Virus record (IMG/VR): IMGVR_UViG_3300028388_001804
Location: 1 to 52,939 of that record
Strand: one strand, 5' to 3'
DNA from: a virus
Taxonomy: Duplodnaviria; Caudoviricetes
DNA: 52,939 bases
Part shown: one piece after another, positions 11,826 through 45,413 of the stretch
Position numbering within the stretch: position 1 is the first letter of the stretch
Layout: the number at the start of each line of letters is the position of its first letter
Notes under the pieces: generated by a model
What the model was told of the DNA's origin: nothing
Databases searched by the model: none
What the model saw: the letters and a program-made list of their open reading frames with translations, nothing else
Position numbers and translations under genes: made by a program

Positions 11826-14492
11826 TTATTGATTTTTATTAATTCTTAAATCTTTTTTATTTACCCATTTATACTCTTTATTAGATAATCTTCTTGCTAT
11901 CATATTAGAATAATCTATCTCAGCCTTCGCCCTACTAACTGGGGCTCTAGCTTTAAACTTACCTGACTCAGGATCATATATCATCATAACAACTTGAGAT
12001 TGATCTGGAGTCTCGTACCCATAAGGGCTGTCTGCTTTAACAAAAGGAGCATAACCATAGATAGGATCGTTTGGATTTTGACTAGGAACTAATTGAATTA
12101 ATGGATTATTACCGTCTGTTGGTATATAAACATTAGATCCATCCACAACATGTAATTCTTTGTTATCATCATTCACAATACCTAGCTCAAGTCCGTATTT
12201 AAATTTCTGGTAGTCACCAGATAGAGTTGCTATATGTATAGCTCTTTTATCTTTTATATCTTGGCTTATACCTTCTTGTTCATACAAAGTAGCATAATCA
12301 GACGCAGCTCTTTTAGCTATATTCATAAGTTCTTCTTTGGTATTAGATCTTATTTTTCTAAGTGTAGTTCCATCAGCTTTAGTAATCACATGTTCAACAC
12401 CAGAATAAGCCCCACTAACATAAGGTAAAAATTCTTCTTTATCTCCTGACTTTAATGTGTAACTAGCTACAGTTTTTGTTTTAGTTTTACCGTCAGCGTC
12501 AATAACAAGATATTCGCCTTGATCTTTACCTGATTGCCATAATCTAGCTGCCTCAGCTTTCATATAAGATCCAGTAGATCCATCTCCAGATAAATTTTCT
12601 CCAAGCCAATGACTAGATATATTTTGATATGAGTCTAAATTTATACCTTGTTCTTCTGCTAGTTTTTGAGCTTTCTTAGTATATTTCTTACTAAGCTTTT
12701 TATTAGGTTTTATTCTGTTCCATATACTACCTGCTGGATTAAGAGGATTAAATGTTTTTGACTTCGGATTATTAGGATTTGCTACTCTGAGATCTCCTGC
12801 CATTACAGCCAATGCTTCATCATCAGAAAGATCTAATTTTTCTTTTATCTCTTTATGTAATTTAGATAATTCTGGATTGTTATACACAACTTCAGCTGTT
12901 CTACTATATTTAGTTCTCATTAAAGCACGTTTAGAATCCATAGCAGAAGCAAGAGATTGTGCGCTTTGTAGGTAATCATTTGCATCTACTGTGTTAGCAG
13001 TCATTGCAACAAATAAATCATCAGCAGTATTTGGATCTATTCCCAGTGCCTTAGATTGTTCTATAAAGTTATCTCTATTATCGGAATAAACTGAAAGATG
13101 GGCTATACCTTCATTTGTAATTCCTGACTGATCTATTACTTTTTTCAGCTGATTATTTCTTCCTGCAATTGCCTTCATACTATTAGAAGACACATCTATA
13201 GACTGAGTAAGGTTAGCCTCTAATTCTGCACCACTTGTATTTTTAGCTGATTGACTGTAAGTACTGTACATTGAACCTTTAGATATATCAAGTTGTTCTT
13301 GCATTATCCTAAGTTTAGCTCTTTGTATGCTGTTCTTTTTTCTATCAGCTTTAGCTTTATTATAAATAAGTTGCATATCTCTTTGTTCTACAAAATATGC
13401 TTCTTTCATAATATCAATATACCCTCTTGATATTTCTTTTTTAGCCAACTCTTGATTTGATAAGTTATCTATATCTTGTTTAGATGAAAGTAAATCAGAT
13501 TCAGTTTGATTTAAATCATTTAAAGCTTTGTCTAAAGCCATCTGAGTATTCTGACCCATAATACCATCAATAGGTCCTGGATTATACCCTAAGGACATTA
13601 ACTCTTGTTGTAATTCTTGTATATCTCCAGAAGATGCTTTACTATTTAAACTTGTCTTTAAATTGCCTATTTTATTTATTTGATGGTCATATCTTGCTTT
13701 TTCATCTTCTTTTAAAGCAGATCCAACTAAATCAGCCTTAGCATAAGCATCCACATCTATTTGCCCTTGTATTTTCTCATCTGATTGCATTAATTTAGAT
13801 GTTAGCTTTTCAATTCTGTCTTCAGAAATATGTTTCAAAGTGTGTTTTTCAAACCAAGTAGAAGCATCGTTACCGAGTAATTCAACAACTTGATTTTTAT
13901 CAAGTTTATCTAATATAGAAGTTAGCTCTTTCTTTACATCCACATAAGGTCTAATAAATCTCTCTGTGTTTGATATTGCTCCTGTACTTTTTTTAAGATT
14001 TTTATCATAAAAATTACTTATATCCTTAGAACCATAATTTTTCATATACTCCTTATAAGCATAATATCTGTTGTTATCAGCTCCTGCAACATCTCCTAGT
14101 TTATCATCTACATTAGAATAAAACTCAGCTTCGGCTTTTTTTAGTTCTGCAAATTTATTATAATAACTATTAGGATCATTTTTCTCCTGTTTCATGTGTC
14201 GAATAAAATCCCTAGTAGCTTTATCTCCAGCTGCTAAACCTTCGTTTTCATATATTTCATATATGTTTTCATATTGACTATCTAATTCTTGGGTATATTC
14301 GTTAGCTTTTTGTTTGTCTATTTCACGAGGATCTATATAAAATTGATCTTTAGCTGCTTCAGTTTGGTCAGCCATTAAATCTCTTTTCTGTATTGTTTCT
14401 GCCATAGATTTAAAATCTGGAGTATACAGTTTATCTATGTGCCTTGTTACATTAGCCTGAAACTGTACAGGCTTATCAAATCTATTTATCAA
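11826..14492 (-). CDS. Large internal virion (cargo) protein with a peptidoglycan-binding module
   Basis: 888 aa, TTG start, helical. Contains IQELQQELMSLGYNPGPIDGIMGQNTQMAL (PG_binding_1 pattern). Lies between the cargo gene and vRNAP as in crAss-like genomes. Confidence 0.7.
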   Translation of the reverse strand: MINRFDKPVQFQANVTRHIDKLYTPDFKSMAETIQKRDLMADQTEAAKDQFYIDPREIDKQKANEYTQELDSQYENIYEIYENEGLAAGDKATRDFIRHMKQEKNDPNSYYNKFAELKKAEAEFYSNVDDKLGDVAGADNNRYYAYKEYMKNYGSKDISNFYDKNLKKSTGAISNTERFIRPYVDVKKELTSILDKLDKNQVVELLGNDASTWFEKHTLKHISEDRIEKLTSKLMQSDEKIQGQIDVDAYAKADLVGSALKEDEKARYDHQINKIGNLKTSLNSKASSGDIQELQQELMSLGYNPGPIDGIMGQNTQMALDKALNDLNQTESDLLSSKQDIDNLSNQELAKKEISRGYIDIMKEAYFVEQRDMQLIYNKAKADRKKNSIQRAKLRIMQEQLDISKGSMYSTYSQSAKNTSGAELEANLTQSIDVSSNSMKAIAGRNNQLKKVIDQSGITNEGIAHLSVYSDNRDNFIEQSKALGIDPNTADDLFVAMTANTVDANDYLQSAQSLASAMDSKRALMRTKYSRTAEVVYNNPELSKLHKEIKEKLDLSDDEALAVMAGDLRVANPNNPKSKTFNPLNPAGSIWNRIKPNKKLSKKYTKKAQKLAEEQGINLDSYQNISSHWLGENLSGDGSTGSYMKAEAARLWQSGKDQGEYLVIDADGKTKTKTVASYTLKSGDKEEFLPYVSGAYSGVEHVITKADGTTLRKIRSNTKEELMNIAKRAASDYATLYEQEGISQDIKDKRAIHIATLSGDYQKFKYGLELGIVNDDNKELHVVDGSNVYIPTDGNNPLIQLVPSQNPNDPIYGYAPFVKADSPYGYETPDQSQVVMMIYDPESGKFKARAPVSRAKAEIDYSNMIARRLSNKEYKWVNKKDLRINKNQ

Positions 14493-20723: not shown

Positions 20724-21253
20724 CTTAATATGGTATCATTATATTTATAAATAATCTCAGAATTTTCTAATATATAATCTCTCATTATAAATCTATATTT
20801 TTTAGGAAATTTAAATCCATAATAACTAAAAGCGTGGATAAGATCAGAGTCTAAAGACCTAGTCCATTTTAAATAAACTCTATATCTATTAGTGTGATGA
20901 GAATCTCTAAAAGTTTTTAAATGTTTAAGTTTTTCTGGATTAAATCCTTTGACTAGATACCTACCTAAAGTTCTAGTATGTTTATCGTAAGTAGGCTTAG
21001 CTTTTTTAAAAGAAATTGACCCTAATCTGTATGGTAATAATATTTTTTTACCTTTATAAAAAGTTTCAGTGAAAAGTAAATCAATATAATCTGAAAGTAC
21101 TTGTTTTGTTTTTTCATACGAAAGAGGGGGTAATGTATCGCAGTTTTCTTTATAAAAAGAAATTAAATCTTTATAGTACTGTGGTGTCCCGTAAGTAGTT
21201 TCTTGATAGAATTTACCTTCTTTGGTCAATGGAATTGCTATTGTTTGTCTCAT
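20720..21253 (-). CDS. IHF/HU-like DNA-binding protein (crAss IHF_53-like)
   Basis: Basic 177 aa with ILLPYRLGSISFKK; typical position before the tail tubular gene. Confidence 0.6.
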   Translation of the reverse strand: MRQTIAIPLTKEGKFYQETTYGTPQYYKDLISFYKENCDTLPPLSYEKTKQVLSDYIDLLFTETFYKGKKILLPYRLGSISFKKAKPTYDKHTRTLGRYLVKGFNPEKLKHLKTFRDSHHTNRYRVYLKWTRSLDSDLIHAFSYYGFKFPKKYRFIMRDYILENSEIIYKYNDTILR

Positions 21254-21875
21254 CTTCTTTTAATTTGAGTGAAGGAAAAATAAGTTTTAACGCTACAGAT
21301 AGTACGTCTAAGTGTAAATTTGCAGGGAGATCAAATTCTAAGTCTCTAGGGTCTTCTGTACAAGTTTCTGCTAAAGTTTCTTTCTCACACAATGTTTTAC
21401 CTGCCCAGTCAGCTGGGTCTTCCCAAATACCTTTTACTATAATAGCCTTTAAATTAATATTATTCCACAATACAATCTTATTATTAACTAAAGAAAACGA
21501 AATTTGTTTTTTATAAATAGGATGTAAAAGTCTATGTTTTTGTTCTTCAGGGTATATTTCAGTTATTCTATTATATCCTAAAGTATAAACTTTTAAATTA
21601 TCCCCAATTTCTCTTGGTAATTCTATTGTACTTTTTAAAACATCACATCCAAAATTTACGCAATCGCAATCGTGCGCTTTACCTAATTCTAATTTCACAC
21701 AATATTCTTTAGTAGACCATAAGTCTTTATTTTTAATATTTTTTAAATATTTATATAACAATGCTTTTCTGGCATTATTTAATATAAAGTATAGATACTG
21801 GTCTGTAAAATAAGAATCATCTGAATATTCTGATATAGATTTTCTTAAAGCAGATATTATTTCTCTATTTGTCAT
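21213..21875 (-). CDS. Tail ring / head-tail connector protein
   Basis: N-terminus REIISALRK...SDDSYFTDQYLYFILNNARKALL and C-terminal EFDLP...DETNNS resemble crAss ring proteins. Confidence 0.65.
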   Translation of the reverse strand: MTNREIISALRKSISEYSDDSYFTDQYLYFILNNARKALLYKYLKNIKNKDLWSTKEYCVKLELGKAHDCDCVNFGCDVLKSTIELPREIGDNLKVYTLGYNRITEIYPEEQKHRLLHPIYKKQISFSLVNNKIVLWNNINLKAIIVKGIWEDPADWAGKTLCEKETLAETCTEDPRDLEFDLPANLHLDVLSVALKLIFPSLKLKEDETNNSNSIDQRR

Positions 21876-22635
21876 AATGTATTTTTAATTCTTTTAATTT
21901 TATTATTTTATAACCATCTTCTTTTAAATGAATAATATTAATACTGGAAACATCAAAACCTGCTCGTTTTAAAATTAAAGCATATATAGACAATTGTAAA
22001 GAATATTTAACTATTTTATTATCATATAGATTATGATAAGGAAATTTCATTTTATTATAATAAGTTCTTTTAATTTCTTTATCTGTTTTATAATCCCATA
22101 TTTCTAATTTATCAGTTTTAGTATTCCATATTAGTAAATCAATCATTCCTGCTAAGCCTAATTCAGAATCTCCTATTACAAATTCAGTTTTTATAGGTAC
22201 TAAATGAGGGTGATCTTCGAAAAAAGATATTCCATGTTTAGTTTTTAATTTATTATCTGAATATTGCAAAAATACTCCATATCTTCTTTCAGCTATATTT
22301 TGTAAGGCATCGTGAGTACCGCTTCCTTCTTCAGATGCTTTTTTACCTTCTAATTTCCATTTATTTTTTATACATAAACTTTCTTCTAATAAATTATAAT
22401 TTTTAATAAGACTATCTATTTTGTCTGTTGACATATCATTATTAACACTAATACCTGCAGCTTTTAAAGCAGCGTATTTGCTGCGATAATTTACATCAAA
22501 AGGAATTTTATACTTCTTTATGTATTGTGTACTACTTGTAAGAATTTTATTAGATTTTGAATCTAGATAATAATGATCTTTGTCGTGATAATGGATGTGA
22601 CTAAACCTCTGTATTAATTTTACTATATCTAACAT
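21865..22635 (-). CDS. PD-(D/E)XK (Cas4/RecB-like) exonuclease
   Basis: GSGTH, EFVIGD..LAGMIDLL, IWDYKT and YSLQLSIY motifs. Confidence 0.85.
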   Translation of the reverse strand: MLDIVKLIQRFSHIHYHDKDHYYLDSKSNKILTSSTQYIKKYKIPFDVNYRSKYAALKAAGISVNNDMSTDKIDSLIKNYNLLEESLCIKNKWKLEGKKASEEGSGTHDALQNIAERRYGVFLQYSDNKLKTKHGISFFEDHPHLVPIKTEFVIGDSELGLAGMIDLLIWNTKTDKLEIWDYKTDKEIKRTYYNKMKFPYHNLYDNKIVKYSLQLSIYALILKRAGFDVSSINIIHLKEDGYKIIKLKELKIHYDK

Positions 22636-22636
22636 A

Positions 22637-25546
22637 TTAAAAGCTTAATATTAATAATTCTGAACTATTAACAATACTATAAGTATTGCCGTCTGCTAAA
22701 GAAGCTTCTGCTTCTACTACAATTTTATATATACCATCTTGATTAAATGTAACGGATGTCTGTTCTTCTATACCATTTAATCCACTTGATTGTGAATTGT
22801 TGTACCCTCCTGTTATAATATTATCTGCTGTGTAAGTGATTGGACTGTTTGTAAAATTAATTGTATTATAACTATTTGTCCCAGGAGCATTCTCTATTTT
22901 AATTCTAGCATAATTATATGTTATAGGATTATCCGCCAGTTGACCTGCTCTTATTGCAAAAGGAGTGTTTCCTCCGTTAGAATTACCTGTAGCCAGTCTA
23001 AATGTAAAATTAAACGTATTCCCGTTTACTGGGGATACACTGGCTATATTAGGAATCCAAGATTTACTTAAAGTAGCAACATACATTTCAAGATAGCTTT
23101 CTAATCCCGGTAAATATGATAAAGGTGCATTCCAAGTTACTGATAATGGAGTAGTAGGAGTTCCTACGGAGAATTTTTGCAATAAACAATCTGTGTTCCA
23201 ACTACCTCCTGAATTGTATATATTAGAACTATTATCTACTGTTTTGTTAAATAATATATTATAAATAGCAGAGTACTGTTCGTTAGATTGACCTATATTT
23301 ATCAACTGCGGACCGTTACCTCCATAATTTCCTGTTGTATAAAAAAACGAATCATTTATATCATAAGTAAACGGAGCAAAATCAGATGGAGATGCTGGAG
23401 TAAATGCTGTACCATAGCAAGGTTCGCCAACACCGTCTCCATCGCTATCATAAACAGTATCATTAGTTACAGACCAAGTAGATGGGTTTAATGTTATATA
23501 TTGAGACAAGTTTTGAGAGCCTATACCTTTAACTTGATATGCAAATCTCATAGGACTATATACATAAGGTATAGTACAAGAAACTTCTTGATTGGGAATT
23601 GTTCCAGAATTTACATTAAATGATATGGGTGTTTTATATCTATCTATAATATGTGAAGTTGATGAACTAGATATACAAACATCATCTGGTTGAAATTCAT
23701 ACTCAAAAACTAAATTTTCTCCTAATCCGATCCCTAAGGTTGATGTTGCCACAGCCCACGAAAGTTTGTCAAATTCAATATTTGTAGTAGCTGTAGTACC
23801 TGATGTTACCCCTACTATGTTATCAGTGAAAAATGAACTGTAAACATTCCAATTAGATATATCTGTTCGAGGAGAGTGCATTGTACTTGCACCTCGAATA
23901 AAATCAGCTTCTGCTAAAACAGTACCAGAGCTATCTTTTATTCTAATTACAGTTATATCGTCAATACCGAATGATGACGTAACTGTGTTAGTTAATATCC
24001 AGTCAATATTACCAGTAGTAGTATTATATGTTTGAGAACTTACTGTTGTAGAAGAAGTGTCTGTTGTATTTACTGTAACATTATAAACTGTTTGTCCTGA
24101 AAGGATTCCTATTTTACCAGTTCCATCTACAACTGATTCTATAGTCACCACTGCATCTGATGTAAAGTTTTCAGTGATAGTTCCATCTGAAGTTAAAGTA
24201 GGCTCTTTTATGTTAATAGTATCTATATTGTACCTAATTTTAAAAGGTGCATCTCCTCCAGTAAATTGAAAGTTTATATTAAAATCTCCATTTGGACAAA
24301 CAGATTCTGAAGATCCAGATATTTGCACTTTAAACGCAGACTGTATATTAACATATACATATTTATAAGAATTACATTCTCCTGCTTGTTGATATATGTA
24401 TAAACCTTCTTGCATACCTGTTGTATTTAAAGATCCATTTATTAATTTGCCAGCAGGAGTATTAGAAGGGCTAAATGTAGCTTGTTCTATAACTGAACTT
24501 TCAGTTAAATATGTATTTAAATTTACAGTGTCTCCTGCTACAACTTCTAAACTATTGTAAGATGAATTGGGTATATTTTCATTTTCACATATAGTTAGAT
24601 CGTCACATAAATCTTGTCCAAAAGACACTGTTTTGTTTACAACAATATCGTCACACTCAGACTCTTGTATGTTTATAGTTCTTCTAAAATAATATGTAGT
24701 TGTTGGAAATACAGGAGTGAATCTTTGAACTTTTATTTGTGTAACTGGTGTGCTGACAGTCCAATTCCAATTAGCTTCGTTTGTTGTTTTTTCTTGTGTT
24801 AAAGCGGTTCTCTGTGTTTCACACCATTCCATTGGAAATGTTAAATTTGCAGGATCATAACCAATCTGTAACTGAGTATTAGTAAGTATAAATGTTAGTT
24901 TATATTTATACTCTTTTATAACATAGTTTGTTCCTCCATCAGGATAAAATATAAATTCTAAAATATCTGTAGGAAGAGAATTATCGTAATATGATTGTAA
25001 AGCAGATCTGTCATTAGATGAAATACTTTGGGTAAATGTTATAATTCCATCTGTTTCAGGCACCTGGACTGATGTTGCTGGGTTTGTAACAATCAAAGAA
25101 GTGTGAGTAATATAAGAACAATCATCTCCTATTAATATAGGATTAGATGGGTTTGCATTCCATGTAATACCATCTGTACTATATTCAATAACATCTGATA
25201 CAACAGTTCCGTTCATATTTCCAATAGGAGATACTTGAAGCTCGTCTACATTACATGAAATGTTCAAATCGGGACTGTTGAAACAATAATCTATAATGTT
25301 TACAACTTCGCAATCATAATTATTTTCGTGTAATATATAATCTTTTAATATACAATCCAATTGTTCAGGTATAGAACAATCAGATTGATACTTTATTATA
25401 AAAGAAGCCATGTACGCTTCTTTGGCTTGTTTTAAAGCGACACAATCATCAGGACATTCAATGCCGTACATCTGAGAATATAAATAATCAGACATAGCAT
25501 CAAATAATCTACATGATTGTGTTGTAGAGTTTGTTGTTAATACCAT
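22637..25546 (-). CDS. Tail fibre/spike-like structural protein with Ig-like beta domains
   Basis: 969 aa, Cys-rich N-terminus, T/S/N-rich beta repeats (IEYSTDGITW, FTGGDAPFKIRY). Confidence 0.55.
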   Translation of the reverse strand: MVLTTNSTTQSCRLFDAMSDYLYSQMYGIECPDDCVALKQAKEAYMASFIIKYQSDCSIPEQLDCILKDYILHENNYDCEVVNIIDYCFNSPDLNISCNVDELQVSPIGNMNGTVVSDVIEYSTDGITWNANPSNPILIGDDCSYITHTSLIVTNPATSVQVPETDGIITFTQSISSNDRSALQSYYDNSLPTDILEFIFYPDGGTNYVIKEYKYKLTFILTNTQLQIGYDPANLTFPMEWCETQRTALTQEKTTNEANWNWTVSTPVTQIKVQRFTPVFPTTTYYFRRTINIQESECDDIVVNKTVSFGQDLCDDLTICENENIPNSSYNSLEVVAGDTVNLNTYLTESSVIEQATFSPSNTPAGKLINGSLNTTGMQEGLYIYQQAGECNSYKYVYVNIQSAFKVQISGSSESVCPNGDFNINFQFTGGDAPFKIRYNIDTINIKEPTLTSDGTITENFTSDAVVTIESVVDGTGKIGILSGQTVYNVTVNTTDTSSTTVSSQTYNTTTGNIDWILTNTVTSSFGIDDITVIRIKDSSGTVLAEADFIRGASTMHSPRTDISNWNVYSSFFTDNIVGVTSGTTATTNIEFDKLSWAVATSTLGIGLGENLVFEYEFQPDDVCISSSSTSHIIDRYKTPISFNVNSGTIPNQEVSCTIPYVYSPMRFAYQVKGIGSQNLSQYITLNPSTWSVTNDTVYDSDGDGVGEPCYGTAFTPASPSDFAPFTYDINDSFFYTTGNYGGNGPQLINIGQSNEQYSAIYNILFNKTVDNSSNIYNSGGSWNTDCLLQKFSVGTPTTPLSVTWNAPLSYLPGLESYLEMYVATLSKSWIPNIASVSPVNGNTFNFTFRLATGNSNGGNTPFAIRAGQLADNPITYNYARIKIENAPGTNSYNTINFTNSPITYTADNIITGGYNNSQSSGLNGIEEQTSVTFNQDGIYKIVVEAEASLADGNTYSIVNSSELLILSF

Positions 25547-25556
25547 TATATTATAT

Positions 25557-26045
25557 TTAACATGAAGTACATCCAGAAGATTTCTTTTCTTCTAAATTAA
25601 GATTTCTCTGCAATAGTTTAAAAGCTTCACACATTGTTTCACAAGAACAATCTGAACATTGAGATCCTAAAATTAACATTTCATAGAGTAGGTAATCATT
25701 TGAATTTAGCATGGTATCTATTACCTTACATTTTATCTCATCATCTTTATCATAAAATGAACAAGTTTCTTCTTGGCTATAACTACCTTCTTGAGCATAA
25801 GAAAGTTCGATATTGTATACAGTTGAATTTAAATCTTGTTTAAGATACAAAGTTTCCTCAGAAGAATCCAAATAACTGTCGGTTGTATCTAAACCAGTTA
25901 AATCTACTTCTAGTTCAACTTCATCTCCACAATTTAAGGTTATGGTTACTTTTAAATCTAATGTATTATCGTTAATATAATTTTCTATTAATACTGATTC
26001 AGACACTTCGATATATTTAGTATCTTCATTATAATTTACTGTCAT
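25557..26045 (-). CDS. Acidic Cys-rich tail-associated protein
   Basis: 162 aa with CSDCSCETMC and terminal GCTSC; lies in the tail module. Confidence 0.45.
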   Translation of the reverse strand: MTVNYNEDTKYIEVSESVLIENYINDNTLDLKVTITLNCGDEVELEVDLTGLDTTDSYLDSSEETLYLKQDLNSTVYNIELSYAQEGSYSQEETCSFYDKDDEIKCKVIDTMLNSNDYLLYEMLILGSQCSDCSCETMCEAFKLLQRNLNLEEKKSSGCTSC

Positions 26046-26422
26046 TTTTCTATACTTTTAATACTGTGATTTGGGTCAATAAAATCTAATATTTTGTCTA
26101 AAAGGTCTCCTAAGAAACTTAAATTTCCTTTTAATTTATTTTTTCCTAATACTGATGATATTGTTTCATCTTCATCTCCAAATAAATCTGTAGCATTCTT
26201 AGTGATTAATATTAAATTAAAAAGTTCGGAATATAAAACATTCCCAAGCTGGTCTAAGGAAACAGCTACTCTGTAGAATAACTTAGTAAAATACTCAATA
26301 GTTTTACTAAAGGGTCGAAATACAGCAGCTCCAATTTGAACTAATAATCCTAAAGGAAATATAATTGTAATTAATATTACAGCTACAAAAGTTAATGTGA
26401 TATTTACTATAAGAGATTTCAT
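26042..26422 (-). CDS. Membrane protein, possible holin/lysis accessory
   Basis: Long N-terminal hydrophobic helix plus DQLGNV...FGDEDETISSVLGK, a motif recurrent in small phage membrane proteins. Confidence 0.55.
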   Translation of the reverse strand: MKSLIVNITLTFVAVILITIIFPLGLLVQIGAAVFRPFSKTIEYFTKLFYRVAVSLDQLGNVLYSELFNLILITKNATDLFGDEDETISSVLGKNKLKGNLSFLGDLLDKILDFIDPNHSIKSIEK

Positions 26423-27015
26423 TGTTTTAATAAATTTTTATTTAAAGGGATAGCTATTCCGGCAATGCCTACAGCAATTCCTTGAATTTTTCTTTTGTAT
26501 TTAACAAATAGCCATCCTTCAAGAAGAGGGTGTAATTTAGAAGCTTCATTATCAGATTCAGTCCATATATCATTTTTAAGAGCTAAGTCGTCATACTTTT
26601 TAAAATTATTAGCGACTTTATCTCCCCATATTTTACTGTCTTCGTAGCCAATATAATCTGCCATTCTAAATCCAAGCGGCTTTAAAAAATTATCTTCATA
26701 AGCTTGATTCAAACTAATCATTTTATTATTCATATCTTTTAACCACATTGGAAACGGACTTTCAAAATGAGCTGTTTCTGCTACAGTAATTTGATATTGT
26801 AAGATAGATATTTTTTTTCTTAGATTTTCATTTTCTATTTTTAATTCGTCTAAAGATTCTTTTACTTTTTTCATTTCAGATTTCAAAAAATCTACAACAA
26901 ACTCAAGACCTTTTGTTTCTTTTTCTTTAGACCATTTAAATAATTCAGGGATTTTTACTAGGATAAAAGTAACTATTGCTACTATTATTTCATTTTTGTA
27001 AGTCTGTAAGTCCAT
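26419..27015 (-). CDS. Membrane-anchored coiled-coil + PAS-domain protein
   Basis: TM helix (IIVAIVTFILVKI), heptad coiled coil, then ESPFPMWLKDMNNKMISLNQAYE...DYIGYEDSKIW...F...D (PAS_4-type pattern). Confidence 0.75.
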   Translation of the reverse strand: MDLQTYKNEIIVAIVTFILVKIPELFKWSKEKETKGLEFVVDFLKSEMKKVKESLDELKIENENLRKKISILQYQITVAETAHFESPFPMWLKDMNNKMISLNQAYEDNFLKPLGFRMADYIGYEDSKIWGDKVANNFKKYDDLALKNDIWTESDNEASKLHPLLEGWLFVKYKRKIQGIAVGIAGIAIPLNKNLLKQ

Positions 27016-27016
27016 A

Positions 27017-28258
27017 TTACATTGTTGTATTAGTGAGTTGTCTCCATTCAGTTCCGTTATAATAGCACAGAGTATTTAAAGTAGTATTATATAAAGTAAG
27101 TCCTTCTTCTGGAGAAGATATAGCATTAATTTGAGCTGTAGTTAATCTAGGTAGTAGTATACCTTTAGAAGAAGATTTTACATCTAATATTGCATTACCT
27201 GTTTGAGCATCTATAGGAACCCCAAAAACTTCTTCGTGAATAATAACTTTTCTGTTATTATGTAATAACTTCGGACCTGTAATATTTCCAGCTATATCTA
27301 CCGACCTTTGCATATATCTATGAGAGGTACTATTTGAAACTACATATTCTACTTTAATCCCAGCAGAAGGATTTGTCATTCCATTAAAAGAATCCCACAT
27401 CAATTCAGAAATTAGCTGTCCAGATTTAATAACAGATAAATCTGCTATTCCTCCACTTAATTTAAAGCTTGACTGAGTTACTGTGTTAAATACATTTCTA
27501 ATTTCAAGAAAATTAGGACTTACAAATGAAATATGTTTATTTGACATTGCGTTAGTATCCGAATCTATAGGATTTCCATATGCCCATCTTAAATTATTTG
27601 TTCCGCTTATTTCTAATGCTGTATTTGACTCTATATCATCTGCTGGAAATTTTGATAATTTAGCCCATCCAGTATTTGTATTATTAGTTTCTTTTATATA
27701 AAGGTCTCCTGTAGATGAACTAAGAGACAGAGAACCCGTGTCTGCTGTAAACACAGATTCAGGGGATCCGCTCTCTGTAAATATATCAATTGAATCTATT
27801 CCATCATTCAACCTAAGATGATGTTTAGTTAGAGAACTGACAGAAGTAAAGCTTACATCAGCTGTAAATACAGCTATTCCTCCTTCGTCTAAAATGGATA
27901 CAGACCCTAGAGTTCCTGCAAAAGAAAGAGAATTTTCATTTAAACTTATTGTTCTAACAGATTCTAAAGTTCCGTTGGCTGTATATATATTATCAGAAGA
28001 ACCTACTGTAATATTTTGTAAGATATTAGATATAGGCGTACCTGCTGGGTAGTTAATTCCTTGTACAATTGTTTCATTAGATGTTAAAGCTTGCCAATAT
28101 CCTTGTGTATATCCTTCTTCTAAAGTAGAGTATAAGTTTATAATATCTGGAAGAGTACCGGGATACCCAGGTCTCTTCCAGTTTTTTGTGTGTTTTGTAT
28201 CAGATAATATACCATAGGTAATATTTAAATATGGTATATCGTTAATGTTATTAGTCAT
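27017..28258 (-). CDS. Tail fibre protein A
   Basis: NIYTANGTL, SGSPESVFTADTGSL..LYIK and C-terminal AILDVKSSSKGILLPRLTTAQ...YNT...YYNGTEW, a fibre motif common in Bacteroidota and their phages. Confidence 0.7.
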   Translation of the reverse strand: MTNNINDIPYLNITYGILSDTKHTKNWKRPGYPGTLPDIINLYSTLEEGYTQGYWQALTSNETIVQGINYPAGTPISNILQNITVGSSDNIYTANGTLESVRTISLNENSLSFAGTLGSVSILDEGGIAVFTADVSFTSVSSLTKHHLRLNDGIDSIDIFTESGSPESVFTADTGSLSLSSSTGDLYIKETNNTNTGWAKLSKFPADDIESNTALEISGTNNLRWAYGNPIDSDTNAMSNKHISFVSPNFLEIRNVFNTVTQSSFKLSGGIADLSVIKSGQLISELMWDSFNGMTNPSAGIKVEYVVSNSTSHRYMQRSVDIAGNITGPKLLHNNRKVIIHEEVFGVPIDAQTGNAILDVKSSSKGILLPRLTTAQINAISSPEEGLTLYNTTLNTLCYYNGTEWRQLTNTTM

Positions 28259-28857: not shown

Positions 28858-31401
28858 TTATTGATTTGTATACGTTAATATATTATTTAAATTATTGCCT
28901 GTCTGGGGTTGATTAAAAATAATTATATCTGAAATAGCAGTTGATTGAATCGAACTAAACATAGTATTTAATCCAAGATAATTACCTTCAATACTTTCTG
29001 GATTATGCGAAACTGGAGTTCCGCTGGCATCAAATAAAAGATTATTATATTCTTCTACCCAAAAAGTAGATTCTAAGCCTGCTAAAGTTGTGTTGTTGAG
29101 TGTTCCGTTTAATGGTTCTTCTGCTACAAGCACTCCTTTATCAAAAATTTTTATCCCTGAAAGACAGCCGTTAAAATTGTTGTTTAATTCTGATATACCG
29201 TTGATTGTCATTGTGCCAATTTGTGCGACACCTGAAAACAAGGTATGAACAATACCATCAACTGTTAGTGTTACAATATTTGATTCATCACGACTTAATT
29301 TAATCTTTCTTACTATACCAACGGTACCAGCAGATACAGAATTGTCAATTGAAGAAACTACTCTAACAAAATAAGAACCGTTCAAAATAGATATTTTTTT
29401 GTTCGATGTCCCATCTGGGGTATCGCCAGCAATAACATACTGACCTGTATTAAAGTTGTGTTTTACAAAAGCATGTATATCAAAAGCACCTGTTAAGTTT
29501 ATTGTAGAATTAAATGTTAAATAATGTGTACCATCAAAAGTACCTCCATGCACAAACTTTTTAAGAAATGCAGGTGTAGCTGTTGCTTTTAATTTAGACG
29601 GTGGGTAATTCCAATTACTTGCTGGATTGGTGTATGTTTCGTTTATTTTTATCGGAGCTATTAACTCTCTAACACCTGCTCCAAAAGTCATTCCTGTATA
29701 GCCATTCTGCGGATTGTAGACAGTTCCGTTGTTATCAATCTTAATTAACGCCATATCTTTTGGACGAGTCCCGAATAGATCATGAATCACGTCAAAAGTA
29801 ATTCCACTAAAATTAGGCGTGGTTATTGCGTATTCTTCTGTACTTCCGTCTTGAAATACATATGAGCAAGTTATTTCAGTTGTCCCTGTCCTTGTTAGTC
29901 TCTGACTTCTTAAATCTATTAAATTAGTAAATTTTGGTGATGCAAAACAGTTAGTCCCCTGGATGTATATACTGTGGACTCCGTTCGTACCTCTTATATA
30001 CACACCAGTATTACCTGCTGAATTTATCGCCCAACCAAGAACATGAAAATCGACAGACCTACAGTCAAAAACTATCTCAAAATAATCTCCAATATTTTCA
30101 AGCCAAGATTCAGAGTTATCTACTGTTATTTGGTCAGTTGTTCCGTCTACAAATTTAACTTTATTAAACCCATTCTTCAAAGCATAATGATAACTATCTT
30201 GTGTCTGACTCCAGAACGCATCTACATCACTTGTTGTAAGTGTTCCGTGATTATTATTTTCTGACACATCATAAATTATTAGACCCATCTTTTCTGTGAA
30301 AGTTAGGTTTGTACCGTCTGAAAGCACTAAATTCCAGCATGTTCCTGCTGTGAAATTAATATCATTTCCATTAATACTTGGGATAGATGTTCCTTCACTG
30401 CTTATTATTGTTATTCCTGTTAAATCTGTAAAAGATAACTTGTCATTAATACCGTCAAAGTTTCCACAAGGACTCTCTACAACATCTATATTATATTTAA
30501 CGCGTCCTGTGTACTGTAGGTCATTTCCAAGTACGTCTTTAGCTGTATCTAATTCATTTCTTGGAATTACTGTACCTAAATTTTCTGTATATCCAATATC
30601 ATTAGACCAGCTTTTAAGTACCCCTACATCTGTAGAATGGAAAACATTTATATCACCAGTTACTATAGAACCGTGATTGCCGTTGCCAGAACTGTCGAAT
30701 GAAATTATTCCTGACTCTTCTTCGCACTTTAAAAACGTACCATCACTTAAAAGTAAATCTTTAATTGTACCTGCAGTAAAATCTATTCTACCAGCAGATA
30801 TAGTTGGTGTAGAAGTTCCGTAGTATGATACAACTGTCTCTATTCCAGTTAAATGTGGAAATAATAAATGATCTATTACACCATCAAAATTGTAAACTCT
30901 TCCTAATTTTTGTGGTCTACTCTGACCTTCTTTAGCATCTACTATCTGACCATTAACAGTAGATGGTTGATTACCTTGCTCATTTAAATACCAAGCAACT
31001 AAAGAAGGAATACTAAAAAGTACACTTTGATTTTGAAATCTGCGCCATTCAGTTCCATTATAATATTGCAATTCAGAAGAGTCTGTGTTATATATAGTTG
31101 TACCTTCTTCAGGAGTTAAAGCATCTCTTTCTAAATCAGTAAGTCTTTGGTGTTTATCGTCAGATAAAGCCTGTATAGCAGAAGATGTAGTAGTATACAC
31201 TGAGTTTCCTATGGAAATGGGGCTTATAGTCGAATTTTCAGCTGACCAGTAACCTCGTGATAATCCTTCTTCTAAAACATCATATAAATTAATAATTTCT
31301 GGAGTTCCGCCATTTCTGTTTAATGTTGAACTTCTTTTAAGATCATTTTTTAATATGCCATACGGCAACATTAATTTTTTTATGTTATTTTTATTTGACA
31401 T
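28858..31401 (-). CDS. Tail fibre / receptor-binding protein B with LamG-like repeats
   Basis: Repeated FDG.D and D.SGN.NHG motifs; shares its N-terminus with fibre A. Confidence 0.7.
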   Translation of the reverse strand: MSNKNNIKKLMLPYGILKNDLKRSSTLNRNGGTPEIINLYDVLEEGLSRGYWSAENSTISPISIGNSVYTTTSSAIQALSDDKHQRLTDLERDALTPEEGTTIYNTDSSELQYYNGTEWRRFQNQSVLFSIPSLVAWYLNEQGNQPSTVNGQIVDAKEGQSRPQKLGRVYNFDGVIDHLLFPHLTGIETVVSYYGTSTPTISAGRIDFTAGTIKDLLLSDGTFLKCEEESGIISFDSSGNGNHGSIVTGDINVFHSTDVGVLKSWSNDIGYTENLGTVIPRNELDTAKDVLGNDLQYTGRVKYNIDVVESPCGNFDGINDKLSFTDLTGITIISSEGTSIPSINGNDINFTAGTCWNLVLSDGTNLTFTEKMGLIIYDVSENNNHGTLTTSDVDAFWSQTQDSYHYALKNGFNKVKFVDGTTDQITVDNSESWLENIGDYFEIVFDCRSVDFHVLGWAINSAGNTGVYIRGTNGVHSIYIQGTNCFASPKFTNLIDLRSQRLTRTGTTEITCSYVFQDGSTEEYAITTPNFSGITFDVIHDLFGTRPKDMALIKIDNNGTVYNPQNGYTGMTFGAGVRELIAPIKINETYTNPASNWNYPPSKLKATATPAFLKKFVHGGTFDGTHYLTFNSTINLTGAFDIHAFVKHNFNTGQYVIAGDTPDGTSNKKISILNGSYFVRVVSSIDNSVSAGTVGIVRKIKLSRDESNIVTLTVDGIVHTLFSGVAQIGTMTINGISELNNNFNGCLSGIKIFDKGVLVAEEPLNGTLNNTTLAGLESTFWVEEYNNLLFDASGTPVSHNPESIEGNYLGLNTMFSSIQSTAISDIIIFNQPQTGNNLNNILTYTNQ

Positions 31402-37319: not shown

Positions 37320-39792
37320 TATTTATTTTCTGATTTTCTAGTTCAATTTTATTATGATGTTCGTAAGTCTTATGGTCTAACTCCAGTTGTTTTTCTTCTA
37401 AAGAAACTTCAGACTTCATCATTTCAGTTTTTCTTCTTTCTATCTCTTTTACGACAATTTTTTCAATCTCATGTTTCTGATGATCTTCTCTAAGTATATT
37501 TTGCTGTTCTACAAGCTCTTTCTGAGCTTTACTTTGAGCTTCTTGCATTTCTTTTAATCTTTTAGCTCTTTTGTTAGCTTCCTCTTCAATAGCTGCATGT
37601 ATCTCTGAAGCAGAGGCGTTGTGTGTCATTAGCTTAACTAAGCGAGAAACAGATTCAATACCTTCTCCTGCATTTTGAGCAAATGCGTGAACTAATTGCA
37701 TCATAGTTTCTGTATATCTACTGCTAGAATCAGAAGAAGACAGCCAGAGTCCAAAGTCGTTGTAAGATAAATGATCTTCAGTTATTTTAAATATCACTTT
37801 ATTGCCTTCACTGGTAACATAAGTCATATACTGAGCAGTTTCTCCATTTTCAAATCTTTCTCTAATACAGATTCGATAAAGTTCTAACCAATAGTTTATC
37901 GTTCTTCTCCAAAAATTTAATGTTTTTTCAAAGTAAACTTTGGTCATTGTATAGGATCTTTGAATAGCTTCATTATCTGAAGACGCTGTAACTCCTTGTG
38001 TGAAATGAGCTTCTCTTTGAGGAGATATACCCATAGTATAACTTATTTCTCTATCAAGAAGACTAATTAAATTTTGTAGTGCTAGTATTTCATTTGCACT
38101 CCCAAGTTTAAATACTTGTCCCCCCGGAGTCCTAGTATGAGTTACTATAGCATCATCTGATGTCTGAGATCCTGAGTATAGAGATACATTATGATCTTCT
38201 AACATTCTAAACCAAGCAATTGTAGGGTCTTGAATATAATTACCGTCAGCATCTTTTCCAAGATCATCAGGTATTTGATCTACATCCACTGAATGAATAA
38301 AAGATTTATATTTAGATATTTCTTTATTTTGAATAAGTTTTAAATAAAATATTTGAAACATAATTGGGATAACTCTTTCAACTATTGATACAGCGTTAGA
38401 GTTTCTTTCTTCAAGAAGAACTCCATGGTATGATAAAGAAAAAGAACTAAACGGTCTTTCCATATTCAGAGGTTGTATCGGGACTTGACGACATTTCTTG
38501 AATATTTTACCGTCTATAACAAACATTTCATAAGCTCTTGGAATCCAATGTTCCTCTAGTTGAAAATATTGTTCTAATTCATCGTCATACCAATTGTAAG
38601 ATGTATATACATCTCCATATACATTTGTAGTCTTTTCTTTTTTAGCTTTTTTAGGTATCTTGTATGCTTCTGAAAATACTTTTACATCTTTATCTCCATC
38701 ATCATTATAAGATATTCTAAAATATATTTTATCGTAAGCTTTAAATTCTACATGAGATACCCAGTATAAATCTGAATTGCTATTATATCTAGCAGTTGAA
38801 TTGGATTGATATAATCCTGTATTTCTATCAGACCATGTATTTACAGTGTTTGCGTCGTATATAGACCATTCATAAGCACCTAAACTGTTTTGAATAGGTT
38901 CAGCTTTAGAAAATATATTATGTCTTTTATCGTAATTAGATATTAATCCTGAATCAGTACCAAGCTCTTTTAATTCTTCTTCTGTTAAATCTAAGGAGTC
39001 TATAAGTTCTGATTTGGTCATGACCGTGTTATATTTAAACCATTCTGATTTAGATATAAATTCTTGATCTGGAGATTTTTTGTAATTAACTCTTAAAGGA
39101 TTAATTACATCAATAACTGGCATACCATGTTTTATACTAACTTTAGTGTATGCTTCATTAGATATAACAGCATCAATCCAAGTATCTGTAGCTTTTTTAG
39201 CTACATCTTGACTGTATAAACATAGTTTTACTCCGTGAGACATGAACACTTCCCAATCTGTTAAAAAATCTTGTTGTATAACTTCTGCAGGAGAAGGCTG
39301 AGTAGTATTTTCCTCTAAATACGTTTGTTTTTCAAGAGGATTTAAATTCTCAGCTTCAAGTTCATTTTGTAGTTTTTCTTTTAAAGCATTTTTAAAATGT
39401 TTCTTTTTCAGCTCATTTTTCTTTTTAAAAGCTGAAGAAGTCAAAGGAACTACAATAAATTTATTATTTGATTGGATCATATTTAAAAAATCTCCTGCTA
39501 GAACATTAACTTTAGTATATATTTTATTATTATACGGCAATATACTTTCTACATTTATAGCTTCGGACTTTTCTCCTGTTAAAGATGAATACTGTTTTAT
39601 TAAATTTTTATATGTAGAAATATTATTATTTAATATTTCATAACATTGTTTTTTTCTTTCGTAATCTGGAGTTTCTGTAAAAGAAGAAGATATGTTGATG
39701 TCCCAAAAAGTTTTAAACCATTGATTGTCGTTAGCATGTTTTTCTTTACCTGAAACTTTTAAACTGAAAAAATTATCTGTATTTATTTTCAT
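37306..39792 (-). CDS. Portal protein
   Basis: 828 aa directly after TerL; KVNVLAGD, VINPL, MGISPQRE motifs and a coiled-coil C-terminus. Confidence 0.85.
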   Translation of the reverse strand: MKINTDNFFSLKVSGKEKHANDNQWFKTFWDINISSSFTETPDYERKKQCYEILNNNISTYKNLIKQYSSLTGEKSEAINVESILPYNNKIYTKVNVLAGDFLNMIQSNNKFIVVPLTSSAFKKKNELKKKHFKNALKEKLQNELEAENLNPLEKQTYLEENTTQPSPAEVIQQDFLTDWEVFMSHGVKLCLYSQDVAKKATDTWIDAVISNEAYTKVSIKHGMPVIDVINPLRVNYKKSPDQEFISKSEWFKYNTVMTKSELIDSLDLTEEELKELGTDSGLISNYDKRHNIFSKAEPIQNSLGAYEWSIYDANTVNTWSDRNTGLYQSNSTARYNSNSDLYWVSHVEFKAYDKIYFRISYNDDGDKDVKVFSEAYKIPKKAKKEKTTNVYGDVYTSYNWYDDELEQYFQLEEHWIPRAYEMFVIDGKIFKKCRQVPIQPLNMERPFSSFSLSYHGVLLEERNSNAVSIVERVIPIMFQIFYLKLIQNKEISKYKSFIHSVDVDQIPDDLGKDADGNYIQDPTIAWFRMLEDHNVSLYSGSQTSDDAIVTHTRTPGGQVFKLGSANEILALQNLISLLDREISYTMGISPQREAHFTQGVTASSDNEAIQRSYTMTKVYFEKTLNFWRRTINYWLELYRICIRERFENGETAQYMTYVTSEGNKVIFKITEDHLSYNDFGLWLSSSDSSSRYTETMMQLVHAFAQNAGEGIESVSRLVKLMTHNASASEIHAAIEEEANKRAKRLKEMQEAQSKAQKELVEQQNILREDHQKHEIEKIVVKEIERRKTEMMKSEVSLEEKQLELDHKTYEHHNKIELENQKINNGKQ

Positions 39793-41560
39793 TATATAAT
39801 TTTTTACTCATTGATATTATAGCAAGTTTATTTTTTGTTTTTTTAATTGCTTTAAGTTCAGCTGAATGTCTATCTTCTTTTATCCCTATAGCACACCCTA
39901 CTAAACTCATAACAGCATCGTAATTTCCTGAATCAAGTTCAAAACTTGCTATTTGTTTTAATGTAAAAATACAAGGTAAAGTTTCTATTACCAGTCTTTC
40001 TGTTCCATCAGATAGTTTAACTGTTTCTAATAACAAATCTCTTAAAGTTTCTAAGTATTGAATTTTAGAAACTCTATTTCCTACCATATATCCATATTGC
40101 GTTACTTTTTGCTGTTTAATAGAACTACCTACAGATTTACTAGGTCTTAAAGCTAATAATGAAGATTTATTTTTTCGGTAATAATAATCTTTACAAGCTT
40201 GTCCTCTGTTTGCTTCATAATGCAACCCTCTAGTAGGATTGCCATATAAAGCTAGAAGTTTTTCTTGGTTTTGATAGTACTCTTCTTTACCGTTAAAAGG
40301 TTTGCCTATGTATGTAGCTACAAGAGGAGATTTTTTCATAAATGTACTCCAATATTTAGGATTCATCATAACATGAGTAGATCCTAAAGACCCACCGTTT
40401 TCTGTGTTATCAGATACATAAGGGTCATGTCCAATATATTTATACATATCATCAGGAATAGTGCCATTTATTTTAACAGGAGGTTCGTACATTACAATAG
40501 CTCCTGCTAGGTCGTCTCTAGCATTCCAATTTTTTATATCGTAAAAAGGTTCAGATTTAAAGTCTACATTATATTTAATTTTATAATCTTTTGTAGAATC
40601 CCATGTTAAAGTAATAGGAGTACCTATAGTCTTGTAAAGAGAATTTTTTTCAAGTTGAGATATTCTTTCTATTGCAAGATCAGAAGGTAGTATAGACCCT
40701 TTAGAATTAACCCACATATCTGAAATTTTAACAGGATAATTCATTTTGTGCATACGAAGTGCTAAAGGATTGTTTGACTTAGAATGCTTATCTTCCTGTT
40801 TTGCAACAGCAGCTTTTGCCTTTTCAAAATCAAGATTACCATTCTCATCTCTGTAGTCATGAATAAAAGCTTGATATGCAGGAATAAAAAATCCTACTGG
40901 CTTATCAGTTTTTTCCCATATATCTTCATAGCTTACTATATTATAAGCTTCTGTAGATGTAAACATTTCTTTAGATGCAAGAATTGTTTCCATATGTCCA
41001 GAAGTTCCTAAAAATATTTGCACTCCAAATTGATCTTTTGGATCTGGAGTTACAGATACAGTTGCCATATTAGATCTATAAACTTTTCTCACATTTGCAA
41101 CTAAACCAACTTCTTCAATAATAGAAGTTACATATCGACCACCTGCCGCTGCTTCAGCTCCATCTTTTTTCTTAGAAGAATATAGTATATGGTATAAAGC
41201 AGATTGAGTGCCGTAACCATCAATCCATCGACCTCTCACTTTCTTCTTATAATTATGTCTCCACCCTTTAGTTTCTTTATTACCTGATTTAGTAGATCCC
41301 ATCATATCTTTGAAAAAAGGATTTGGTCTATAGTCTTGGTCGGTAGGTTTACCCCATACACCAAGATCTTGATTGTGTGCAAATTCATTCATACACTCAA
41401 CCATTTTATTTATAAACTCACCTGATTTTTTAGAATCTGATGAACCCACTGCAACGTGTATTCTATTCGGATTTTTAATAGATTCTTCTGTATAATATTT
41501 AGCTGAATCAAACACAAGATCATGCAGACCTTCTTCTAACGATATTTTATAACTTTTTCC
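39773..41560 (-). CDS. terL: Terminase large subunit, exon 2
   Basis: The frame extends 45 nt upstream of the track start to GGA AAA AGT (GKS). Contains Walker B IIEEVG, coupling motif FLGTSG, and nuclease motifs IGHDPY, YEAN, GNYDAV. Confidence 0.9.
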   Translation of the reverse strand, partial: GKSYKISLEEGLHDLVFDSAKYYTEESIKNPNRIHVAVGSSDSKKSGEFINKMVECMNEFAHNQDLGVWGKPTDQDYRPNPFFKDMMGSTKSGNKETKGWRHNYKKKVRGRWIDGYGTQSALYHILYSSKKKDGAEAAAGGRYVTSIIEEVGLVANVRKVYRSNMATVSVTPDPKDQFGVQIFLGTSGHMETILASKEMFTSTEAYNIVSYEDIWEKTDKPVGFFIPAYQAFIHDYRDENGNLDFEKAKAAVAKQEDKHSKSNNPLALRMHKMNYPVKISDMWVNSKGSILPSDLAIERISQLEKNSLYKTIGTPITLTWDSTKDYKIKYNVDFKSEPFYDIKNWNARDDLAGAIVMYEPPVKINGTIPDDMYKYIGHDPYVSDNTENGGSLGSTHVMMNPKYWSTFMKKSPLVATYIGKPFNGKEEYYQNQEKLLALYGNPTRGLHYEANRGQACKDYYYRKNKSSLLALRPSKSVGSSIKQQKVTQYGYMVGNRVSKIQYLETLRDLLLETVKLSDGTERLVIETLPCIFTLKQIASFELDSGNYDAVMSLVGCAIGIKEDRHSAELKAIKKTKNKLAIISMSKKLYNENKYR

Positions 41561-42461: not shown

Positions 42462-43007
42462 ACCCCCACGAGTGCCAAGTATAAAAAAATTCTTAGCACC
42501 ATTTAAATATAAAGGAACACCTTTTGGTTTATCATGTAATTTATACAAATATTGTTTAGGCGGTACATAAGTTTTCCAAGAACCGTCAGGTTTTTTTAAA
42601 TAAGGTAAATGTCTTTTTGGTATATCTTCTTCACTAAAAGCAGTTGTAATACCTTCATAACAAGTGTATTCTGTATCATCTTTAAACCCAGAAAACCCTC
42701 TGGCTATGAGCAGTCCATAGCTCATAGTCCAATCAACATCTCTCATTACAGGTCTGATGAGTTTACGTCCTTTTGTAAACTCATCCACATCAACAATAAC
42801 ACACATATTATGGTACCACTGCATTTTACCGCTGCAATATCTGTATCCATTATTTTCTTTAGCCCAATAACCTTCTATAAATCTTCTCTTTAACTTAGAC
42901 CAGTAATCGACATACCTTAGTTCATCCGCAGGATTTATTTTTTCAAAAGAATCAATTAACCAAGTATTCCTGTTTTCTATCTGAACCCAGTAGTCTTTAT
43001 CTAACAT
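42462..43007 (-). CDS. terL: Terminase large subunit, exon 1
   Basis: YW...KRRFIEGYW, RPVMRDVDW; ends at the first half of Walker A (FFILGTRGG). The spliced product would be 777 aa. Confidence 0.9.
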
Positions 43008-45363: not shown

Positions 45364-45413
45364 ACTTACATGTTTATATAGTAATAACTAAAAATATTAT
45401 ATATTTATTAGTT

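Follow-up and report, generated by a model that had tools for sequence, protein, structure and literature searches.

A membrane-anchored PAS protein of a crAss-like phage, with homologs next to lysis genes, as a candidate modulator of lysis

The viral record IMGVR_UViG_3300028388_001804 of IMG/VR, analysed here over its whole length of 52,939 bases (hereafter the window), carries on its minus strand an open reading frame (ORF) at 26419..27015 for a single-pass membrane protein of 198 amino acids (aa), in which a membrane helix is followed by a leucine zipper and a PAS domain with no output domain. This ORF overlaps by 4 nucleotides (nt), in the sequence ATGA, with the ORF of a 126-aa membrane protein (26042..26422, minus strand). 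Peptidoglycan hydrolases of various families recur next to homologs of the PAS gene and, independently, downstream of homologs of the 126-aa gene, and both genes code for lysis-cassette-type membrane proteins, each of a separate family. We tentatively propose that the 198-aa protein modulates the membrane (holin) step of lysis, as a zipper dimer with cytoplasmic PAS domains and with the membrane helix as its output.

The N-terminal transmembrane helix of the 198-aa protein was located by Kyte-Doolittle hydropathy at aa 8-28 (26932..26994, minus strand) and corresponds to the helix 3-26 of the AlphaFold2 model, for which the predicted local distance difference test (pLDDT) is 91.2. It is followed by a leucine-zipper coiled coil at aa 30-84 (26764..26928, minus strand), a single and unbroken helix in the model, with seven heptads in which the a positions are V, M, L, N, I, I and H, the Asn being residue 62, and the d positions are L, L, V, L, L, L and A; weak matches to bZIP_1, DivIC and YabA were detected over aa 30-83 by the Pfam scan. 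The PAS domain, at aa 87-192 (26440..26757, minus strand), is modelled with strands at residues 90-93, 99-102, 150-152, 168-177 and 180-190 and with helices between them. By Foldseek, a total of 54 matches to PDB were obtained at an expectation value (E) of <=1e-3, and all those listed are PAS, LOV or other sensory-box domains, the top matches including VqmA (6kju, 6ugl and 6ide) and phage VqmA (7dwm); with the listed solved PAS domains the protein shares 8-22% identity. The family profile matched the PAS domains of VqmA (E 4e-4) and BvgS (E 1.5e-3). The window protein itself gave no Pfam PAS match at E<=0.1, while among five aligned relatives PAS_4 was matched by four (best E 1.6e-6) and PAS by three. 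The PAS assignment is thus based on the model, Foldseek, the family profile and the PAS_4 matches of relatives rather than on a Pfam match of its own, and at the level of the predicted structure the PAS fold is confirmed.

No output domain of the HisKA/HATPase, helix-turn-helix, GGDEF or similar type was matched in the 198-aa protein by Pfam or NCBIfam, and the protein ends 6 residues beyond the last PAS strand. The first-pass annotation had described a transmembrane segment, a coiled coil and a PAS-like domain without a kinase or helix-turn-helix domain, in a gene overlapping by ATGA with that of the 126-aa protein, and each of these points is confirmed. Neither protein gave a match in PADLOC at E<=0.01, and no dual-start motif of the lambda S105/S107 type is visible at the N-terminus of either. 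The helix and zipper alone (aa 5-90) match PHROG families of short proteins of 87-138 aa (phrog_3671, 1009, 6664 and 4257), which suggests, at the sequence level, that the PAS domain was added onto an older small membrane module. Among the homologs examined in this respect (L014, L043 and L017; loci are given here by their numbers), two matched 'hol-like chemotaxis' families (phrog_2658 and phrog_8369; E 7e-5 to 1e-3).

By word-index search only two close relatives were found, with 47-51% identity, but the exhaustive profile-free search yielded 529 cluster representatives at E<=1e-3, including 262 at E<=1e-10. The family was sampled as 152 proteins, the best 150 of the 529 plus the two from the word-index search. 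These proteins range in length from 135 to 305 aa with a median of 207, none being kinase-sized, and the PAS domain starts with the motif PxPxW in 147 of them. Invariant columns of the PAS domain include those that correspond to P87, W91, D126 and G186 of the window protein. An N-terminal hydrophobic segment is present in 118 of the 152, and members entirely without the helix exist, for instance P0125, P0146 and P0154. Among the 118, the 15 residues after the helix contain more Lys and Arg than the 15 residues before it in 107 members, the same number in six and fewer in five. By the positive-inside rule, these counts predict an N-out/C-in topology, in which the zipper and the PAS domain would be cytoplasmic. 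The PAS domains of VqmA, NifL, BvgS and WalK, the nearest solved relatives in the Foldseek listing, are cytoplasmic domains.

In a scan of one genome per prokaryotic species, only three loci of the family were detected (Cyclobacteriaceae, Bacteroidia and a weak one in Reinekea), and judging from this distribution the family is mostly phage-borne. It seems to be an ancient family specific to phages, not one copied recently from a host kinase. The named hosts are mostly Bacteroidota, and the names given in GenBank to members of the family are 'PAS fold protein', 'regulatory protein' and 'hypothetical protein'.

For the survey of gene neighbourhoods, loci were collected by tblastn against cultured phages, by a protein-pattern scan (13 loci) and by a degenerate DNA pattern, the last giving 43 stretches, 40 of them with an ORF accepted by the family hidden Markov model (HMM) and three rejected (L044, L052 and L059). 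Contigs fetched twice (nine rows) were merged, as were contigs with identical or near-identical PAS proteins (L024/L041; L027 and L034/L038; L047/L032; L039/L043; L006 and L007/L009). A total of 38 viral loci remained, and with L140 and L141 from the genome collection the set comprises 40 non-redundant loci.

A peptidoglycan hydrolase recognised by Pfam lies within three genes of the PAS gene in 13 of the 40 loci, and directly downstream of it in nine. The nine are GH19 in L014 (the phi14:2 locus), GH108 with PG_binding_3 in L015, DUF5675 in L005 and L013, Peptidase_M15_4 in L029, Peptidase_M15_3 in L043 and L050, Phage_lysozyme in L036 and Amidase_2 in L140, and in such loci the stop codon and the start codon of the two genes often overlap. 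The other hydrolases are located one gene upstream (Peptidase_M15_3, L030), two genes upstream (GH108, phage MA9V-1), two genes downstream (Amidase_2, L038) and three genes downstream (Amidase_3, L056). Altogether, nine different and unrelated Pfam families are represented. With an assumed background of 7.5-10%, a count of 12 among the 38 viral loci has a binomial tail of 1e-5 to 2e-4; the loci are not phylogenetically independent. These observations support the linkage of the PAS homologs to lysins well above rough expectation, and to this extent they agree with the connection with lysis drawn by the first-pass annotation.

Another small membrane protein is encoded within two genes of the PAS gene in about 17 of the 38 viral loci, as counted by eye from a hydropathy screen. 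In L043, L023, L046 and MA9V-1 there follow lipoproteins that resemble a unimolecular spanin in having a membrane helix at the C-terminus. These spanin-shaped lipoproteins, encoded after the PAS gene or the endolysin (L043:3712-4170, L023:2988-3485, L046:726-1226 and L002:5957-6589), have no match in Pfam and no annotated match in PHROGs. In L029, a 93-aa membrane protein encoded directly upstream of the PAS gene (L029:4743-5024) matches ETR1_N of the ethylene receptors (E 3e-9).

The 126-aa protein matches phrog_3342 over residues 41-125 (E 1.6e-9). Its long N-terminal hydrophobic helix, the only one, extends over aa 1-38 by hydropathy and over residues 2-34 in the model, which is all-helical (pLDDT 95.5) and joins this helix to a small helical domain. 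A total of 582 relatives of similar length were found on phage contigs and on chromosomes of Flavobacteriia such as Tenacibaculum maritimum. In the soluble part of the family, 11 columns are invariant (D57, F81, G82, E86, S89, S90, G93, L101, G105, L112 and H119) and 20 more are nearly invariant, most of them polar. Conservation of this kind is unlike that of typical holins, and the designation 'holin-like', given to this protein by the first-pass annotation, is therefore doubtful; the pattern of invariant polar residues suggests a putative binding or catalytic site.

Neighbourhoods of the 126-aa family were examined at 80 of its 193 viral loci. The genes upstream are of the tail-fibre type, while those downstream mostly code for membrane proteins of 64-105 aa. 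A hydrolase was detected within the five downstream ORFs at 31 of the 80 loci (DUF5675, eight; M15_3, seven; CHAP, five; M15_4, four; Amidase_2, four; Phage_lysozyme, two; Muramidase, one), in a scan that covered 146 distinct ORFs of 95-450 aa; among the 49 hydrolase-negative loci, eight have less than 1.5 kilobases (kb) of downstream sequence. When 63 genes immediately preceding the 126-aa gene were scanned against Pfam, no hydrolase was detected, the matches being tail-fibre-type domains (Collar and DUF4376) and one terminase. These results support an independent linkage of the 126-aa family to lysis.

The fold search of BFVD with the 126-aa model returned uncharacterised phage proteins only. 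By VIA-align against 48,161 PDB chains, the best match (Z 5.6) was a helical hairpin over residues 1-66, below the meaningful level and barely covering the C-terminal domain. A resemblance of the 126-aa profile to the helix-turn-helix of FNR-type regulators, obtained against PDB sequences, was insignificant (E 0.28) and was rejected. In rare cases the 126-aa module is fused to NUDIX hydrolases: nine longer proteins of 228-298 aa were found (P0273-P0281), four of them with PF00293, and such fusions are probably the reason why some stand-alone members are named '8-oxo-dGTP diphosphatase'.

The first-pass annotation had proposed that the two genes might form a signal-gated device for the timing of lysis. 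The linkage to lysis stands for each of the two families, but an obligate pairing is not supported, because a 126-aa homolog was found at only two of 41 PAS loci, the window included, and because the 126-aa gene is absent from the closest relative, L003. The only other co-occurrence is L011/L020, where the 126-aa homolog (37% identity, E 2e-13) is located upstream of the PAS gene, and the PAS HMM gave one weak match (E 7e-5), 2.2 kb away, across the 80 loci of the 126-aa family. L003, with 51% identity in the PAS protein, is syntenic with the window on both sides, and its PAS gene is followed directly by a 160-aa gene. Among phages that seem to be related, the slot after the PAS gene is variable: it is empty in L003 and is occupied by an 87-aa two-helix protein in L051, by a 156-aa protein in L031 and by the endolysin plus a 192-aa membrane protein in phi14:2. 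A Cys-rich follower gene of L031 and L051 was related by eye only, BLAST giving no match at E<=0.01. Co-folding of the 198-aa and 126-aa proteins, both supplied as alignments, gave a score of 0.00 in a run without controls, which carries no weight for or against a pairing. Nor does the 4-nt overlap single out these two genes as coupled, because the next gene (25557-26045) overlaps 26042-26422 by 4 nt in the same manner and the operon is equally packed throughout, its genes being 1-10 nt apart or overlapping by 4-11 nt. All the same, the membrane-acting part of the lysis module of this phage is best sought in the PAS and 126-aa proteins, since the latter represents another lysis-cassette family, independent of the first, and no third small membrane protein is encoded on the coding strand of the window.

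In the mechanism that we tentatively favour, the single N-terminal helix would anchor the 198-aa protein in the inner membrane and leave only about 7 residues outside. Two copies would pair in parallel through the seven-heptad zipper, so that two canonical PAS domains of the cytoplasmic type would be positioned some 8 nm beneath the membrane. A ligand, a redox state or a protein partner might set the state of this PAS pair, and the rigid zipper might relay it to the transmembrane helices; these, as the output proper, would then restrain or promote hole formation by the holin-type proteins of the phage. The protein would in effect be an antiholin-like or co-holin regulator of timing. Gating by a signal is purely what we infer from the PAS fold and from the closeness to the PAS domains of the VqmA type. 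A bolder version, possible but on the unlikely side, is that the proteins of this family, widespread among phages of Bacteroidota and the crAss-like ones among them, serve the lysis clock as its integral sensor: binding of a host metabolite, a redox cofactor or a quorum-type signal to the cytoplasmic PAS dimer would directly gate hole formation, from inside to outside, through the zipper and the protein's own membrane helix, in this phage with the 126-aa protein as its partner.

Several observations weigh against a role in lysis. The borders of lysis cassettes are common landing sites for accessory genes, and adjacency is for this reason not function. No hydrolase was recognised within three genes of the PAS gene at 27 of the 40 loci; some of these are cut close to the gene (L010, L020 and L042), but in intact ones (L003, L004, L008, L009 and L012) the gene lies among capsid and tail genes, between the crAss major capsid gene and the tail-ring gene in L004 and L008 and adjoining capsid genes in L009 and L012. 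In the window itself no endolysin adjoins the PAS gene, and in L003 no small membrane gene stands beside it. The small membrane neighbours mostly lack a holin annotation: among the 31 small membrane proteins and lipoproteins scanned against PHROGs, the label 'holin' was found for only two (L086 and L073), both from loci of the 126-aa family, the rest being unknown. The predicted topology has charge counts as its whole basis, and no ligand-binding residues were identified in the PAS domain. Besides the limits of the binomial estimate given above, the tally of 13 loci includes DUF5675, which is only a candidate lysin according to a preprint (bioRxiv 10.64898/2026.04.11.717860), and falls to 11 of 40 when this family is excluded.

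The same structural neighbourhoods are the ground for a membrane function unrelated to lysis, such as a sensor of superinfection or host state, a membrane assembly factor or an accessory 'moron': in the window and in L003 the gene lies between tail-fibre-type genes, in addition to the capsid and tail-ring neighbours and the hydrolase-free loci just mentioned. The recurrence of nine different hydrolase families beside the gene, and of spanin-shaped lipoproteins and small membrane proteins as well, makes this fairly unlikely. Because the lysis genes of the crAss-like phage phi14:2 are themselves embedded in a structural block, a structural neighbourhood is no argument against a lysis role. It is unlikely, too, that the PAS protein is the holin itself, with an N-out/C-in helix, often rich in small residues, that oligomerises into the lethal lesion at a trigger threshold set by the zipper-PAS dimer, the 126-aa protein being a modulator or unrelated. 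In nine loci the gene does stand where a holin gene is canonically found, immediately before the endolysin, with no other small membrane protein before the endolysin in L014, L015, L013 and L005, and in or near the helix of 123 members GG is found in 64 and [GAS]xxx[GAS]xxx[GAS] in 55. At least one transmembrane helix, as expected of a holin, is present (aa 8-28), but most holins look different: 198 aa is large for this class, and the soluble domain is strongly conserved. The helix of the window protein, IIVAIVTFILVKI, is without a GG motif, and many loci already have one to three adjoining small multi-helix membrane proteins. The weak structural match to the T4-type 'Holin' of Proteus phage phiP4-3 (E 0.017, template modelling score 0.37) is at the level of chance. 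Mycobacteriophages with LysF1b alone, a protein of the same predicted topology, are lysis-competent and can be triggered early by energy poisons, according to the report on it (PMC13056207), which agrees with a holin role.

Inner-membrane spanins, as their class is described (PMC6139136), also have a membrane helix that leads into a long coiled coil, and lipoproteins are encoded nearby in L048, L051, L056 and MA9V-1. A spanin-like subunit would be N-in, its coiled coil and globular domain reaching across the periplasm to an outer-membrane partner. The Lys and Arg counts predict the opposite orientation in 107 of the 118 members, the PAS domain falls into the sensory-box type found in the cytoplasm, a gene of unimolecular-spanin shape is already present at several loci, and no lipobox ORF lies inside or next to the gene in the window, all of which leaves a spanin quite improbable. 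The sole lipobox candidate on the coding strand of the window is a 125-aa ORF at 46020-46397 (minus strand; …FLFFSC…), 19 kb away, which has no match in PADLOC. The alternative raised by the first-pass annotation, a dominant-negative decoy that heterodimerises with the PAS domains of host sensor kinases and blunts host signalling, starts from a PAS domain that has no output domain and from the general tendency of PAS domains to dimerise. Nothing for it was found. The gene belongs to a late structural/lysis operon and to an old, mostly phage-borne family, in which no member among the best 150 of 529 relatives (all 135-305 aa) is kinase-sized; the scan of one genome per prokaryotic species gave only three loci, one of them weak, and the identity to the listed solved PAS domains is as low as 8-22%. 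Such a decoy is highly improbable.

No stand-alone endolysin was recognised among the 44 ORFs of the window scanned against PHROGs or the 13 distinct ORFs scanned against Pfam, in agreement with the first-pass annotation. Since the record is estimated to be only 48% complete, the endolysin may lie beyond it, and probably sits in the missing half of the genome. The sole peptidoglycan-related signal of the record is found in an 888-aa ORF (11826-14492, minus strand), in which PG_binding_1 covers aa 288-320 and an 'endolysin' family of PHROGs matches aa 238-333; the product may be carried in the virion and ejected, with a module that binds the cell wall. Secondary PHROG labels of 'endolysin' were also obtained for the 100-aa ORF at 44762-45064, to which dGTP_diPhyd_N is assigned by Pfam.

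The window, with a G+C content of about 30% and with nearly all genes on the minus strand, represents about half of the genome of a crAss-like phage. A CrAss_Ring_2 tail ring protein (21213-21875; Pfam E 1.1e-18) serves as a marker of this group, as do the major head protein, the portal and the large terminase by PHROGs matches, and an ORF of 3,370 codons runs off the end of the record. The PAS gene and the 126-aa gene are located in a tightly packed late operon, flanked by tail-fibre-type genes (27017-28258 and 28858-31401 upstream; 25557-26045 and 22637-25546 downstream). The stop codon of the tail-fibre-type gene at 27017..28258 (minus strand) lies 1 nt before the start of the PAS gene; this ORF has PHROG matches only in its C-terminal motif, and its ends are homologous to the 358-aa ORF of L003. 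Directly after the pair, a 162-aa Cys-rich protein is encoded at 25557..26045 (minus strand), for which the Pfam and PHROGs scans gave no family match and which shares 41% identity (E 2.7e-37) with the 160-aa ORF of L003.

Elsewhere in the record, the large terminase gene (39773-43007, minus strand) looks split, ORF 42432-43007 corresponding to profile positions 82-187 and ORF 39773-41515 to positions 236-748, with an ORF for a LAGLIDADG homing endonuclease (41582-42241) between the two; this arrangement looks like an intron or an intein-type insertion. A small cluster of nucleotide-related genes at 44762-45803 (minus strand) includes dGTP_diPhyd_N (44762-45064; Pfam E 9.7e-28), an ORF at 45061-45363 with a weak match to the Thoeris anti-defence protein Tad2 (E 7.3e-4, under the Pfam cut-off) and a MazG-like pyrophosphatase (45414-45803). 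A phage-encoded chaperonin of the GroEL type (48287-49843, minus strand; phrog_5725, E 6e-117) and, amid the block of tail genes, a PD-(D/E)XK exonuclease (21865-22635, minus strand; Pfam E 7.6e-7; phrog_298, E 3.3e-20) are also encoded.

The timing of lysis sets the burst size and the fitness of a phage, and the known timers are holin concentration clocks together with a few add-on inhibitors such as RI and RIII of T4. If the proposed mechanism is true, it would represent a post-translational lysis switch under the control of a small molecule, by which a phage could match the time of lysis to the condition of its host cell with no need for new transcription. In phages of Bacteroidota, among them the abundant crAss-like phages of gut and sea, lysis genes are poorly defined, and the two large uncharacterised families described here (529 cluster representatives, and 582 relatives with 193 viral loci, respectively) may, as markers of lysis cassettes, aid the annotation of such genomes. 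No description of a PAS-domain protein of a lysis cassette was found in the literature, in a search that mostly stopped short of subscription journals. Phage phi14:2 on Cellulophaga baltica offers a cultured system that carries a gene of the PAS family.

The homologs in cultured phages are g078 of Cellulophaga phage phi14:2, annotated as 'PAS fold protein' (YP_008242302.1), and those of Chryseobacterium phages MA9V-1 and MA9V-2 (MA9V2_249, 'regulatory protein'), all members of the same family with helix, coiled coil and PAS domain, 202-209 aa in length and with 25-31% identity in the alignment; the function names are database annotations. Like the window phage, phi14:2 is a member of Crassvirales with the PAS gene inside the structural block. 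It differs in that g078 is followed, with a 4-nt overlap, by the GH19 endolysin g077, whereas in the window the 126-aa membrane protein comes next. In the phi14:2 record a note on virion tandem mass spectrometry is attached to the surrounding genes and is absent from g076-g079. In the GenBank record of MA9V-2, a GH108 protein is encoded two genes before the 'regulatory protein'.

The closest solved PAS domains by profile are those of the VqmA receptors (6ide, 6ugl and 6kju) and of the vibriophage VqmA-DPO complex (7dwm), which also stand among the top fold matches (E 2.4e-5 to 6.3e-5). Phage VqmA ties the lysis decision of a phage to a small molecule. VqmA is a soluble protein with a DNA-binding domain and acts through transcription, whereas the 198-aa protein, encoded among late genes, is membrane-anchored via the zipper and has no DNA-binding domain. 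The holin T of T4 is another single-helix lysis protein of about 200 aa, and its large soluble domain receives the lysis-postponing signal from the antiholins RI and RIII; this domain is periplasmic and not of the PAS fold, and the structural match of the 198-aa protein to a T4-type holin is only the chance-level one given above.

Lambda Rz, the inner-membrane subunit of the two-component spanin, shares with the 198-aa protein an N-terminal helix followed by a coiled coil and an origin in the lysis cassette, according to two reports (PMC5295617 and PMC6139136); the 198-aa protein differs from it by the opposite predicted topology, by the terminal globular PAS domain and by having no gene for a partner lipoprotein. 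LysF1b of the F1-cluster mycobacteriophages is similar by description: it is reported (PMC13056207) to be a holin-like protein with a single N-terminal helix and a predicted N-out/C-in topology, to share its lysis cassette with a small holin-like protein of two helices and to be needed for the normal timing of lysis. Its host is mycobacterial and no PAS domain is reported for it. LysF1b indicates that single-helix lysis-cassette proteins of the N-out/C-in type with a real lysis phenotype exist.

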